Shown: positions 6,057-10,701 of the stretch, piece after piece
How positions within the stretch are numbered: position 1 is the first letter of the stretch
How the letters are laid out: every line of letters starts with the position of its first letter
NCBI GenBank assembly: GCA_963763775.1
Contig: CAVXPZ010000003.1
Location: 448,001 to 512,000, forward strand
Length of the DNA: 64,000 bases
Origin: an uncultured Chloroflexia bacterium
GTDB lineage: Bacteria > Chloroflexota > Limnocylindria > Limnocylindrales > CSP1-4
Direction of reading: 5' to 3'
The notes under the pieces: generated by a model
What the model was told of the DNA's origin: nothing
Databases searched by the model: none
The model's input: only the letters and a program-made list of their open reading frames with translations
Position numbers and translations under genes: made by a program

Positions 6057-8678
6057 CTACTCGTGCCCACCGGGCAGGAGGGCCGACCCGTGGCCGTTCC
6101 CGTTCCCATGGGCGTGGCCGTGGCCGTTGCCGTTGGCGGCGACGCCCGACGGGATCCCGGCGACGGCCGCCGGGAGGACGGGGAGCATCCGGCTCGGGTC
6201 GAAGTGGCGGCCCTCGGCCGCGGCGGCGTCGGCCCACCCGCGTTCGCGGCGGATGTACGTGACCTCGGTCTCGCGGTCGATGGCGGCGATCGCCATGAGG
6301 TCGATCGTCGGCTCGGCGCGGCTCGTGTGCGCCAGCTCGATGTCGCCGCCGTCGCGCAGCGCGTCGTACGGGCACGCGTCCACGCAGATGCCGCAGAGGA
6401 TGCAGCGGCTCTCGTCGACCTCGTACTTCTGGAGCACGCGCGGCTTGGGCATGAGCGCGCCGGTCGGGCACGTCTCGGCGCAGCGACCGCACGACACGCA
6501 CGGGGTGTCGTTGAGGCTCATGTCGAGCGGGGTCGTGACGAGCGTGTCGAAGCCGATCCGCATGAAGTCGTAGCACGCGGCGCCGACCACCTCCGAGCAG
6601 ACCTGGGCGCAGCGGCCGCAGTCGATGCAGCGGGACGGCTCGCGGAGGATGAACGCGTGCGAGTCGTCGCGGACGTAGTCGTGGTTGATCCCGGTGAACC
6701 GGTTCTCGGTCACGCTTCGATAGCCGGCGCCCTGGTGGAACTGCGGCTCGAGCGTCTTGAGCGTCGTGCCGTACTCGATGCCGAGCCGTCGCAGGTCGCA
6801 GAACCCGATGGCCTCGCAGGTGCACTGCAGACAGCGCGTGGACTCCGCGACGGCCGCCTCGCGCGTGTACGGCAGCTCGTACTCCATGTAGTTGTGGTTG
6901 CGCTCCTCGGCCTCGAGCGCGGTCAGCCGGTAGCGCGGCTCCTTGACCTCCGCGGTGAACGGGACGATCGAGAGGAACTCGGGCTGCGGCTCGGCGAGCG
7001 TCTGGCGGGTCCGGATGGCCCCGAGGTCGAGCCCCTGGAGGAACGCGTCCACGGCGTACGCGGCGCGCCGGCCCTCGGCGATGGCCTGGACCACGGTCGC
7101 CGCGCCGATGCGCACGTCGCCGGTGCCGAAGACGCCGGCCCGGCCGGTCTCGAACGTCACCGCGTCCGCCTTGAGCCGGCGCTGCTTCGTGGCCTCCGGC
7201 CCCTCCGATCCAGGGCCGATCCAGGTGAGGTCCGGGCCCTGGCCGATGGCGAGGAGCACGCGGTCGCACGGGACGATGAACTCGGTGTCGGGCGCGGGCT
7301 CCGGCCGCCGCCGGCCCGAGGCGTCGGGCGCCCCGAGCTGCATCCGGATGAACTCGACGCCCGTCACGTTGCCGGCATCGTCCGTGACGACGCGGGTCGG
7401 GCCGGCCTGGAAGATGGCGGTCACGCCTTCCTCGATGGCCTCGTGGACCTCGCCCGACGCCGGCATGTCCTTCATGTCGCGCCGGTAGACGAGCGTGACC
7501 TCGCTGGCGCCCTGGCGGACGGACGTCCGCGAGCAGTCCATCGACGTGAACCCGCCGCCGATGACGACGACGCGCTTGCCCGCGTGGTCCGGATAGGGGA
7601 GGCCGAGCGTGGCGGTCCGCAGGTACTCGAGGCCGTCGAGGACCTCGGCGGCGTCCTCGCCCGGGATGCCCAGCTTGTTCGTGTCGTAGCAGCCGATGGC
7701 GACGACGACGGCATCGAAGCCCTGGTTCGTCAGGTCGTCGAGCGTGAACTCGGTACCGAGGCCCGCGTTGCAGACCATCTTGCCGCCGAGCCGGGTCACG
7801 GACTCGTACTCGGCCTCGAGGACCTCGACCTTGGGCAGGCGGTACTGCGGGATGCCGTAGCGGAGCATCCCGCCCGGGGCCGGGTCGCGCTCGAAGACGG
7901 TCACGTCGTGGCCCGACAGCAGCAGGTAGAAGGCCGCGGCCATCCCGGCCGGGCCGGAGCCGATGACCGCCGCGCGACGGCCCGTCGGCGCCTGGCGCTC
8001 GAACGGCAGCGGCGGATCGACGCCCTCGTCGAGCATCGCCTTGAGGACCTGGTCGCCCGCGTAGCGGTGGCTGTCGCGGATGGCGATCGCCTCGTCGACC
8101 TCGTCGCGCCGGCAGTGCTCCTCGCAGGGTGCCGGGCACACGCGACCCAGCACGGAGGGGAACGGGATCGTGCGCTTGAAGATCCGGGCGCTCTCGCGCC
8201 AGTCGGCCTCGGCGTTGGCCTTGAGGAAGCCCGGGATGTCGATGTGGCTCGGGCACTTGTTCTGGCAGGGCGGCAGGCAGTAGGCGTTGTGGTCGCTGAA
8301 GATCAGCTCGAGGTTCGTCCGGCGGAGGCGGCGGACCTCCTCGGTCTGGGTCTGGACCTTCATCTCGGGCTCGCAGACGCGCGAGCACGAGATCGGCGGG
8401 TTGTCCTCGCCCTCCACCTCGACGACGCACATCCGGCAGGCTCCGAAGCCCGGCAGCTTGGGCTCGTAGCACAGCGTCGGGATCTCGATCCCGTTGTCGC
8501 GGCAGACCTCGAGGATCGTCTGGCCCTCGAAGCCCTCGACGACACGGCCGTCGACCTCGATGCGGATCCGCGGCGACGACTGCGGACGCTGCGGCGAGCG
8601 CGTCTCGAGGAGCCGGTCGGCCAGCGATTCCGGCTCCGGCGTCAGGCGGCTGTCGGGGCGCGTCAGGAGGTCAGCCAT
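6057..8678 (-). CDS. StnC/NfnA-like Fe-S flavoprotein (NuoG N-terminal Fe-S domains with inserted GltD-like FAD/NAD(P)H domain) fused to the C-terminal half of NuoI
   Basis: ATG 8678 (MADLLTRP). [2Fe-2S] [15 protein letters not shown]...C; GltD-like [47 protein letters not shown]...[12 protein letters not shown]; then NuoI-like [23 protein letters not shown]...DIELA. Confidence 0.88.
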
Positions 8679-8686
8679 GGGTCGCC

Positions 8687-10015
8687 TTATGAGGTCGCAC
8701 CGACCGCCACCGCGATCGGGTGGCAGACGCCGGCGGGGCAGGAACTGCGGAGGACGTGATCGTCGAGTTCCGCACGGAAGTATCGCATCCCGCTCAGGAG
8801 CGGGAGGGTCGTCAGGCGCTCGTGGTCGCACAGCGCGGAGGCCGAGATGTCGGCCGACAGGTCCACGAGGAGGTCCATGTCCGTCGGGCGCGGCCGGCCG
8901 TCGATGACCCGGTCGGCGATCTCGACGAGGCGCCGGGTCCCGATCCGGCAGGGGATCGTCTTGCCGCACGCCTCGCCGGCACAGAACCGGGTCAGGAGCC
9001 GGGCGAGGTCCACGACGCACGCGCGGTCGTCCGCGACGAGGACGGAGCCGGACCCGATGTGCGCCCCGGCCTCGCGCAGGGCGTCGAAGTCGTAGCGGCG
9101 TGTCGAGCCGCTCGGCCGGGAGCAGACCGCCGGACGGGCCGCCGACGAGCGACGGCCTTGATCGAGCGGCCGGCCGGCAGCGCGCCACCGAGCGCCACGA
9201 TGTCGCGGAGCGGCGTGCCGAGCGGGACTTCCGCGATGCCGTCACCCGACGGCGTCCGGACGCCGACGAGGATCGTGCCGGGGCTCCCCGCGGTCCCGGT
9301 GGCGGCGAAGGCCTCCGCGCCGTGGCGGATGATCCAGCCGAGGGCGCCCAGGGTCTGGACGTTGTGGACGACCGTCGGCATGCCCCACAGGCCGCGCTCG
9401 GCCGGGTGCGGCGGTCGCTGCTCGGGCTGGCCGCGCTTCCCTTCGAGGGCCTTGAGGAGCACCGTCTCCTCGCCGAGCATGTACGCGCCCTGGACGGGCC
9501 GCACGGTCACGGTGAGGTCGTGCCCCGGCCCGAAGGCGTCCGGCCCGATGAAGCCCGGCCTCCTCCGCGGCGCCGATCGCGGCCTCGAGGCGGCGGATGG
9601 CCTCGGTGTCCTCGGCACGCACGGCGACGATGGCTTCGGTCGCGCCGATCGCGAACGCCGCGATCGCGGCCCCCTCGATCACGCCGTACGGGTCGGTCTC
9701 GAGCAGGAACCGGTCGGTGGCACAGGCGGGGTCGGCGCCGTAGCCGTTGGCGACCACGTACCGGCGCGGCGCCTCCGTGGCCGAGGCGGTCCGCCACTTC
9801 TCCCCGGCCGGGAACCCGGCGCCACCGCGACCGCGCAGGCCGGACGCGACCACGGCCGCGGTCGTGGCCGTCGGCCCGAGATCGCGGATGGCCGTCCGGA
9901 GGCCGTCGAATGCCCCGGCGCGAGTCGCGGCGTCGAGGTCCGTCGGGTCGGCGGCGCCGGCGCGTTCCAGCAGGATCGTCGGCCAGGCGGCCGGCGTCTT
10001 GAGGCGGTTCGCCAT
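8687..10015 (-). CDS. nuoF: Divergent NuoF/HydB-like subunit (three probable sequencing frameshifts near 9557, 9150 and 9095)
   Basis: Pieced from four frames: SGLRGRGGAGFPAGEKW, GAYMLGEETVLLKALEGKRGQP, LVGGPSGG, GSGSVLV, EACGKTIPCRIG, HVLRSSCPAGVC. Confidence 0.85.
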
Positions 10016-10701
10016 CAGTTCGGACCCGCCCGGCCGGTCCCGGCTCGTCCCGCCGATCCGCCGAGCGCGCCGTCGAGCGCGGCCAGGTAGGTCGTCTCCG
10101 CCGGTCGATGCGCCGCGACCGCCGCGGCCTGGTCCGTCGCCGTCGCGGGCTCGAACCGCAGGTGGCGGTAGTAGCTGGCGGTGCCGTAGATCATCGCGTA
10201 CCACGCCCCGGTGCGCTGGCTGATGCGCTTGAGGGCCGCGACGGGCAGGTAGCCGTACTCGGCCTGGGTGGCCTCGAGGATCTCGAGCATCCGGGCCGGG
10301 TCGTGGTCGTGGTCCTCCAGGATGCCCTCGACGGCATCCAGATCGACCGTCGCGAACGGGAGGTAGGCCGGATCGGGGACCGGCCGGCCGGACCGCCGGA
10401 GGGCCGATTCCTCGCGCCGCTCGCCGTACGTCTCGGGGGCGCCCCAGTGGACGTGGAACCGGCCGCGGGTGTCGATGCCGCCCATGTCGATGCACTCGAT
10501 CGGACACGCCTGCGCGCACTGGAAGCACGTCTCGCACTTGAGCGTGCCCCACTCGTCGTAGAGCAGCTGGAGGCGGCCGCGGAACTTGTGCGGCACGTCG
10601 AGCCGCACCTCGGGGTACATGACGGTGACCTTCGGCTCGAAGAACCGGCGCAGGGTCAGGCCCATCCCCTTGACGATGCCGAGGCCAGGGATCTGGGTCA
10701 T
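10015..10701 (-). CDS. Fusion of the NuoI N-terminal half and the NuoE N-terminal helical domain
   Basis: ATG 10701 with [28 protein letters not shown]...FRGRLQL...[13 protein letters not shown] (a single ferredoxin motif), then [27 protein letters not shown]...[15 protein letters not shown]; no NuoE [2Fe-2S] cysteines. Confidence 0.88.

Follow-up and report, generated by a model that had tools for sequence, protein, structure and literature searches.

A complex I operon of Candidatus Limnocylindria in which NuoI appears to be split around a cassette of StnABC-like genes

The stretch of DNA described in this report, called the window throughout, comprises 64,000 nucleotides from an uncultured Chloroflexia bacterium (GenBank assembly GCA_963763775.1, contig CAVXPZ010000003.1, positions 448,001 to 512,000). 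On its minus strand lie the genes of a complex I in the order nuoA-B-C-D-H-X-F'-Y-J-K-L-M-N, with the three genes X, F', and Y between nuoH and nuoJ. Complex I has 14 (or 11) core subunits, among them NuoI, which in every described complex I known to us is a single small protein. We consider it likely that the only complex I operon of this genome is of the 11-subunit kind, that its nuoI is interrupted between the two ferredoxin motifs by a cassette resembling stnABC, and that the two-chain NuoI that results clamps a non-bifurcating electron-input head in place. An earlier note, made from the letters of the window, had drawn the operon as A-B-C-D-H-[X-F'-Y]-J-K-L-M-N without an intact nuoI, and both the coordinates and the content of the genes agree with that layout.

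The genome (3.3 Mb in 4 contigs, 87% complete) comes from a lineage that record titles name Candidatus Limnocylindria/Limnocylindrales, in the Chloroflexota. Synonyms of Limnocylindria given in the preprint 10.1101/2021.08.23.457424 are Ellin6529, Edaphomicrobia, and RIF-CHLX.

RESULTS

One half of NuoI in each of two proteins

The G+C content of the window is ∼70% and all six frames are open over long stretches, so that coding frames were assigned from a plot of G+C at third codon positions (GC3). By this plot X and Y are each encoded in one frame. The three genes, and the domains and motif recognized in their products, are as follows.

10015..10701, minus strand: X, 228 amino acids (aa), NuoI N-half plus NuoE/StnA-like domain
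10468..10701, minus strand: X residues 1-78, NuoI N-terminal segment and first CxxCxxCxxxCP (TIGR01971, PDB alignment)
10141..10350, minus strand: X residues 118-187, NuoE/HydC/StnA-like helical domain (PF01257, PDB alignment)
8687..10015, minus strand: F', flavoprotein gene of the NuoF/StnB-core type, in three frames in the assembly
8948..8968, minus strand: N3-type motif of F', C-G-K-T-I-P-C, with the middle Cys replaced (alignment with relatives and solved chains)
6057..8678, minus strand: Y, 873 aa, StnC-like with the NuoI C-half at its end
8343..8570, minus strand: Y residues 37-112, [2Fe-2S] domain of the NuoG/HydA type (Pfam Fer2_4)
7032..8279, minus strand: Y residues 134-549, GltD/NfnB-like FAD and NAD(P)H domain with an Fe-S part (Fer4_20, Pyr_redox_2)
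6453..6650, minus strand: Y residues 677-742, two-motif [4Fe-4S] domain of the HydA/Nqo3 type (Fer4_Nqo3)
6276..6440, minus strand: Y residues 747-801, NuoI C-half (TIGR01971, 8qby_I alignment)

X starts as NuoI. Its residues 12-74 match positions 1-62 of the 121-position NuoI profile TIGR01971 (E = 1.6e-13, ∼50 bits, against a cut-off of 113), and residues 9-73 align with 6-68 of Nqo9 (2fug_9) and 23-87 of plant TYKY (7ar7_I). The ∼50 N-terminal residues that are specific to NuoI are kept ahead of the first motif, and the single CxxCxxCxxxCP of X (Cys56/59/62/66) has all four Cys invariant in 10/10 sequences. Beyond it, residues 125-187 match positions 2-64 of the 145-position Pfam family 2Fe-2S_thioredx (PF01257), and residues 118-186 align to the small subunits of StnABC-type complexes (9bov_C 20-88, 8oh5_A 14-86). 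The TIGR01971 and PF01257 matches bear out the earlier description of X as the N-half of NuoI, with one ferredoxin motif, running into NuoE-like sequence. The thioredoxin-like part is truncated in all four sequences of the window's genus, and the second Cys pair is absent from all six sequences that keep that part (from two other families of the class, f2 and f4). On these alignments the E-like domain of X, unlike StnA, lacks the ligands of a StnA-type [2Fe-2S] cluster. A search of protein representatives with X residues 1-110 returned 1858 proteins at E ≤0.001, 34 of them at E ≤1e-30; no further fusion architecture could be read among them beyond X-type proteins and ordinary NuoI, and their lengths were scattered, probably as a result of fragmented or read-through gene calls.

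Y, conversely, ends as NuoI. From residue 37 to about 750 it aligns unbroken to StnC-type chains (9bov_A, E = 1e-159; 8oh5_C, E = 7e-139), with residues 37-772 set against 8oh5_C 3-702. Pfam places Fer4_20 at residues 134-213 and Pyr_redox_2 at 236-536, and the GltD-like domain aligns to StnC 100-567. Collinearity with 9bov_A and 8oh5_C extends up to CPTGA, the point at which StnC passes into its FdhF-like domain and Y into the NuoI half. There, residues 747-789 match positions 71-113 of TIGR01971 (∼46 bits, also below the cut-off). The Cys of the last CxxCxxCxxxCP (Cys759/762/765/769) are invariant in 10/10 sequences, as are all Cys of the three last motifs, and Y is conserved to its end. Given residues 740-873 alone, the five best NCBIfam matches are NuoI families, each over the second half of the profile, and six NuoI families rank first for the 76-residue tail of a family f4 orthologue. 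The tail of Y also aligns with residues 93-145 of the NuoI chain 8qby_I in the PDB and keeps the NuoI-specific stretch that follows the second motif. Both motifs of residues 677-742 lie inside the StnC-type alignment, which indicates that this domain of Y is already complete. The claim that Y ends, just before nuoJ, in the missing C-half of NuoI is upheld by these NCBIfam matches, and the suspicion that its last motif is a generic ferredoxin motif is countered both by the NuoI likeness and by the position of the motif beyond a complete HydA/StnC-type domain.

On TIGR01971 the two proteins are complementary with nearly no overlap, X covering positions 1-62 (at most 1-77 in other families) and Y covering 71-113 (69-112), as the earlier note had anticipated. 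The halves also occupy the place of nuoI: X starts at the end of nuoH, and the NuoI half of Y precedes nuoJ, the start of which lies 7 bases from the stop of Y.

Elsewhere in Y the Arg matching StnC R239 is kept, an invariant His (residue 204, window ∼8069-8067) occupies the position of the StnC cluster ligand K170, where NfnB has Glu, and the position of StnC C114 is Ile. The molybdopterin-like C-terminal domain of NuoG was not found in Y by Pfam or PDB alignment. Residues ∼845-873 (window 6146-6060) form a tail rich in His, Gly, and Asn that is present in four same-genus sequences and absent from families f2 and f4.

Occurrence in the class and the phylum

An intact nuoI elsewhere in the genome could have served this complex. 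None of the seven whole-genome matches to TIGR01971 exceeds the cut-off of 113 bits, the two best being the X and Y halves, and the genome holds one NuoD (PF00346). X was found in 41/41 close relatives; the window's genus contributes 24 (at 79-87% identity), and a second family, whose genomes measure 1.0-1.4 Mb, contributes 16, one as a fragment only. Within the class, 284 of 301 genomes have a match to X, spread over five families: f1, 88/91; f2, 12/12; f3, 82/92; f4, 99/103; and f5, 2/2. Families f3 and f5 also have X, F', and Y in collinear order; in five genomes from these two families the NuoI profile is split into positions 1-67 and 69-112, and in four of the five the parts lie ∼4 kb apart on one contig. 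In a species-representative collection, 511 confirmed stretches carry the split arrangement. Intact NuoI is correspondingly scarce. Among 121 class genomes of at least 90% completeness (the window's own genome being admitted below that value), 118 have no NuoI over the cut-off. The remaining three have one, at G110:C2:11608-11994, G100:C126:649-1032, and G061:C21:90112-90495, and these could belong to a second complex I operon or to contamination.

The class stands apart from its phylum in this respect. In a phylum-wide draw of 151 genomes, 17/17 class members are without intact NuoI, and 128 of the 134 Chloroflexota outside the class have a near-full-length NuoI at E = 1.9e-24 or better. The split architecture is a conserved trait of the class Candidatus Limnocylindria. 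The class and phylum tallies include genomes flagged as unpublished (G131, G319, G122, G274, G189, G156, G126, G263, G102, G182, G145, and G349), and no claim is based on those genomes alone.

Operon layout and frame changes

The remaining genes of the operon form an 11-subunit backbone, with nuoD directly before nuoH, followed after the cassette by J-K-L-M-N, and with a NuoD of the quinone type.

14617..14985, minus strand: nuoA, a 122-aa open reading frame (ORF) at the head of the operon, presumably nuoA from its NuoA-like sequence and its position
13883..14626, start approximate, minus strand: nuoB, translation with GCPPRPE and a second motif, which we take to be NuoB motifs
13332..13928, start approximate, minus strand: nuoC (ORF and translation), presumably so from its position and sequence
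12096..13316, minus strand: nuoD, sole PF00346 match in the genome
10705..12057, approximate, minus strand: nuoH, frame-broken (GC3 plot, tblastn with the intact NuoH of L023)
5457..6050, minus strand: nuoJ (ORF and translation), presumably so from its position and sequence
5149..5460, minus strand: nuoK (ORF and translation)
3157..5152, minus strand: nuoL, with one frame change near 4125
1463..3150, start approximate, minus strand: nuoM (tblastn with proteins of a same-genus relative)
1..1466, minus strand: nuoN, continuing past the edge of the window (ORF and comparison with a same-genus relative)

NuoD of the window is in one frame and 90% identical to NuoD of the same-genus relative L023; it has a quinone-type sequence and lacks NiFe-type Cys motifs. 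NuoB has a Pro/Ala-rich N-terminal extension of ∼90 aa ahead of its conserved core (window ∼14626-14350).

Within 9 kb of the assembly the reading frame shifts by a single base at ∼7 places, which lie in nuoH, F', and nuoL. Compared by tblastn with the intact L023 NuoH, nuoH lies in four pieces and three frames, with breaks near 11671, 11085-11050, and 10991. A further probable break lies near 10712, where nuoH has no stop of its own and continues in frame through to X. In relatives the two genes overlap here in TGATG; in the window a run of GGGG lies a short way upstream. F' is in three pieces (breaks at 9587-9555 and 9157-9094) and nuoL is in two (break near 4125). The earlier statement that the fusions lie in clean reading frames, beyond explanation by indels, is therefore accurate for X and Y, each in one frame, but does not extend to F', nuoH, or nuoL.

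In relatives, nuoH is a single ORF of 446-475 aa, and intact F' orthologues, each a single ORF of 419-458 aa, are present in 9/9 relatives examined. The readable frameshift sites in the window are short G/C runs and resemble one extra base. No run of public reads contained more than 0.16 of the sampled words. The contigs built from four runs (X21, X3, X4, and X15), of 150-330 bases, none of which bridges a whole junction, represent relatives at 85% likeness or more, and were used for two one-base deletions only; the RNA run is not taken as proof of transcription. At 11669/11671 and 9095/9096 these contigs from other runs are one base shorter than the window. Given the intact genes in relatives, the frame changes are probably long-read assembly errors, and such errors may also explain why a 4-contig genome is only 87% complete.

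The density of frame changes and the low completeness at 4 contigs might suggest that the split itself results from misassembly or indels, or marks a decaying pseudogene operon private to this genome. We give this virtually no weight. X and Y are each in one frame, nuoH and F' are intact in relatives, the frame changes coincide with short runs of G or C, and the contigs of relatives lack the extra base at two of the sites. The earlier note had named relatives' genomes as a check on misassembly, and the same fusions and gene order recur in independent assemblies, in 41/41 relatives, in five class families, and in the 511 stretches. For the split itself the artefact reading is already refuted.

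NuoI halves in a single chain

Two of the six exceptions in the phylum draw outside the class (G428 and G333) have the operon nuoA-B-C-D-H-[628 aa]-J-K-L-M-N, in which the bracketed gene encodes a protein with both halves of NuoI.

L121:8202-10088, minus strand: P0121, 628 aa, NuoI N-half, StnC-type GltD unit, and NuoI C-half
L122:7930-9813, minus strand: orthologue of P0121, 627 aa, with the same three parts

In P0121, residues 4-74 align with Nqo9 6-74 and residues 543-597 align with Escherichia coli NuoI 86-139. The GltD unit between them is closest to StnC-type chains (9bov_A 100-567, E = 1e-119) and is 39% identical to Y 137-619; the C-half shares 38% identity with Y 750-797. The P0121 family has Lys at the position of StnC K170. 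The best 120 homologues are mostly 614-648 aa long, and those among them that are named are called 'FAD-dependent oxidoreductase' of Dehalococcoidia, Dehalococcoidales, or Chloroflexota. Full-length matches to P0121 occur only in G428 and G333 among the 151 genomes of the draw. Frames of 724-736 aa at G389:C1:234758-236269, G442:C37:9094-10587, and G421:C72:23752-25254 match P0121 48-545, i.e., the first Fe-S motif and the GltD unit, at 49-53% identity.

The single-chain form resembles the split form in the insertion at the same NuoI hairpin, in the StnC-type GltD unit, and in the 11-subunit operon, and differs from it in being one polypeptide of ∼628 aa without E-like, F-like, or NuoG-like parts. 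Its sequence shows that a large redox insert is tolerated in the hairpin joining the two NuoI motifs, with the halves kept in one protein.

The backbones are also akin. NuoD proteins of the class are 44-47% identical to those of L121, L122, and a Dehalococcoides-type 11-subunit operon (L142), and 36-41% identical to those of 14-subunit operons. The D-H adjacency is shared by the class, L142, L121, and L122; the 14-subunit operons have a gap of ∼4 kb there. A tree of 27 NuoD sequences, unrooted and built without high-scoring segment pairs of <300 aa (L138) or loci lacking a NuoD match (L123, L124, L129, and L135), resolves three clades at one node: Limnocylindria (10 sequences), the 11-subunit group (L142, L121, and L122), and 14 other Chloroflexota. 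L121 and L122 group with the Dehalococcoides-type operon, which has a normal NuoI, outside the Limnocylindria clade. Since the tree is unrooted, we make no claim on a shared insertion of the split and single-chain forms, a donor, or the order of events.

The cassette compared with known complexes

F' resembles chains of the StnB/HydB/NfnB type (E = 1.7e-92 to 4e-87; 9bov_B and 8oh5_B among them) more closely than it does true NuoF (9e-81 to 4e-68), but its match is confined to residues 103-509 of a StnB-type chain 584 aa long. The Pfam domains recognized in it are Complex1_51K, NADH_4Fe-4S, and, in one of two sequences scanned, SLBB, with no additional Fe-S domain.

The StnABC complex of Sporomusa ovata (8oh5/8oh9, PMC10482914), 9bov, and 9n5u (NfnABC) share the A-B-C gene order of the cassette. 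The E-part of X corresponds to StnA, F' to StnB 103-512, and Y to StnC 3-702. This order, together with the matches of X, F', and Y to the 9bov and 8oh5 chains, agrees with the proposal in the earlier note of an inserted three-gene module of the Stn/NfnABC kind. The differences lie mostly at the ends. The cassette, unlike stnABC, is fused to NuoI halves on both sides, and its head is encoded in the operon of a membrane complex, whereas StnABC is a soluble tetramer. Y has 873 aa, compared to 1172 for StnC, the NuoI C-half replacing the FdhF-like domain and its branch clusters C1 and C2. F' lacks both the N-terminal [2Fe-2S] of StnB and its C-terminal ferredoxin arm with 2x[4Fe-4S]. PMC10482914 describes StnC's FdhF-like domain as residues 683-1172, with tetramer contacts and C1 and C2 as an off-path branch. 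It places the electron path at C7-C6-C5-C4-C3 to StnB, the reduction of ferredoxin at the StnB C terminus, and the reduction by NADPH at the StnC FAD, a non-bifurcating flavin.

Compared to canonical NuoI/Nqo9/TYKY (2fug_9, 7awt_I, 8qby_I), both motifs, their flanks, and the nuoH-nuoJ site are kept, but on two polypeptides encoded ∼4 kb apart, each fused to another protein and neither over the profile cut-off. The head also differs from the NuoEFG N-module, since F' lacks a four-Cys N3 site and conserved FMN/NADH motifs and Y has no molybdopterin-like domain. FpoF and the Campylobacter replacements of NuoE/F are other alternative input modules. An 11-subunit complex I lacking NuoEFG is treated by Moparthi and Hagerhall 2011 (PMC3144371). 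The window shares with that enzyme the nuoABCD-H..JKLMN backbone and an input module other than NuoEFG; it differs in that the module is built into NuoI rather than docked on an intact one.

Contig C4 of the genome carries a 635-aa NuoE-NuoF fusion ORF (L120:7151-9058, plus strand) and, at a distance of ∼6 kb, the C-terminal portion of a molybdoenzyme resembling Fdh-alpha (L120:3-1016, plus strand). This second NuoF-like gene was considered as a part of the nuo system and judged unrelated; it probably belongs to a soluble NAD-linked dehydrogenase.

The nearest solved relatives of the head are bifurcating enzymes (PMC10482914). Two dinucleotide-type sites, the GltD FAD of Y and the NuoF-like fold of F', would suit a true Stn-like bifurcating or confurcating head that handles NADH, NADPH, and quinone instead of ferredoxin and makes this complex I an energy-linked transhydrogenase. 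We regard such a head as unlikely. The C-terminal ferredoxin arm and N-terminal [2Fe-2S] of StnB and the cluster ligands of StnA are all absent, a loss that argues against bifurcation; the nucleotide and flavin motifs of F' are degenerate; and a standard gene for the proton-translocating transhydrogenase PntB is present elsewhere in the genome (G000:C3:721399-722784, minus strand, 583 bits). From the absence of the arm and the two [2Fe-2S] sites, we infer that the head is non-bifurcating.

DISCUSSION

In a 2[4Fe-4S] ferredoxin fold one motif provides three of the Cys ligands of each cluster and the other motif the remaining one, and in complex I electrons pass from the clusters of NuoG to N6a and N6b in NuoI and on to N2 in NuoB. 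In the arrangement that we favor, the X and Y halves would refold into one 2[4Fe-4S] ferredoxin domain sitting on NuoB/D/H as NuoI does, and N6a and N6b, by analogy with the known fold, would each be held by both chains, with three Cys supplied by one and a single Cys by its partner. NADPH or NADH would deliver hydride to the FAD of Y, and NADH perhaps also to an FMN of F'. Electrons would then run through the clusters of Y to N6a/N6b, to N2, and to quinone, driving the proton pumps. N6a/N6b, reconstituted by X and Y, would take the place of the off-path branch of Stn (C1 and C2). F' may be held by the E-like domain of X, as NuoF is by NuoE, and the head and the quinone module would be tied twice, once through each chain. 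That electron transfer is conditional on assembly of the head, as the earlier note suggested, is speculation.

Several observations weigh against this picture. At the N3 site F' keeps three of the four Cys: the motif reads C-G-K-(S/T/A)-(I/V)-P-C in 9/9 relatives, covering each class family looked at, with T in the window, at a position that is Cys in the aligned solved chains. Sites of the form CxxXxxC may hold a [3Fe-4S] center or use a non-Cys ligand, and the three-Cys N3 site of F' could likewise be a [3Fe-4S] center or have an unusual ligand. The stretch of F' corresponding to NADEGDPG reads NGYGADPA, NGYESDPA, or NLMGADP(S/T), the acidic DE pair not being conserved, and in family f4 Asp stands in place of the GKRG Lys. 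With these three motifs altered, the FMN/NADH site of F' is uncertain. Intact NuoI does occur in 3 of the 121 class genomes, in G110 alongside the split one. Should the frame changes be real, this strain, and this strain only, would have a dead complex, and the class-wide finding would be unaffected. Finally, Pfam Fer4_7 pairs the second and third motifs of Y (residues 727-773) as one dicluster domain, so that on sequence alone an intramolecular pairing is possible, and in a PDB search polyferredoxins outscore NuoI chains on the tail of Y, by way of multiple stretches.

The last two points would fit a situation in which the halves stay apart, the last motif of Y pairing within Y, the products of X, F', and Y forming a soluble Stn-like oxidoreductase that is merely located in the nuo operon, and the membrane complex being NuoI-free or inactive. 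We find this very unlikely. NuoI-specific flanks are kept both before the first motif in X and after the second in Y, and the first two motifs of Y already make a complete domain in the StnC-type alignment. The fusions fall exactly at the place of nuoI, with no other NuoI in 118 of the 121 genomes, and the single-chain form has the same halves around its GltD insert. In complex I structures, moreover, a NuoG-type chain has no route to N2 that bypasses N6a/N6b.

Extended to the class as a whole, the two-chain NuoI suggests a proton-pumping NADPH (or dual NADPH/NADH):quinone oxidoreductase with a split-ferredoxin clasp and, in F', a three-Cys and possibly [3Fe-4S] center; NAD(P)H would moreover be the donor of some 11-subunit complexes I through a GltD unit built into NuoI. 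We put this larger proposal at somewhat short of an even chance.

A full-text literature search, with subscription journals and supplements mostly outside it, found no split NuoI, no NuoI-GltD fusion, and no unusual complex I of Limnocylindria, and the accessible parts of the Chloroflexi genome papers PMC5736913 and 10.1101/2021.08.23.457424 do not mention a split NuoI. What appears to be new is a split core subunit and a Stn-derived, GltD-containing head on an otherwise known complex I. In public annotation X appears under the names 'NAD(P)H-dependent oxidoreductase subunit E' and 'NADH:ubiquinone oxidoreductase subunit E', and the single-chain form goes by the oxidoreductase name given above; automated reconstructions therefore probably score nuoI, and with it the whole complex, as incomplete in the abundant and largely uncultured Limnocylindria, a class common in soil and fresh water. 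The arrangement illustrates the grafting of new electron-input modules onto complex I, and a conserved assembly of clusters from two chains, if true, bears on how Fe-S domains assemble. The single-chain form may name the electron donor of the 11-subunit complexes that carry it, and together the split and single-chain GltD forms offer a concrete, testable answer to the question of the donor for the 11-subunit enzyme in two lineages.

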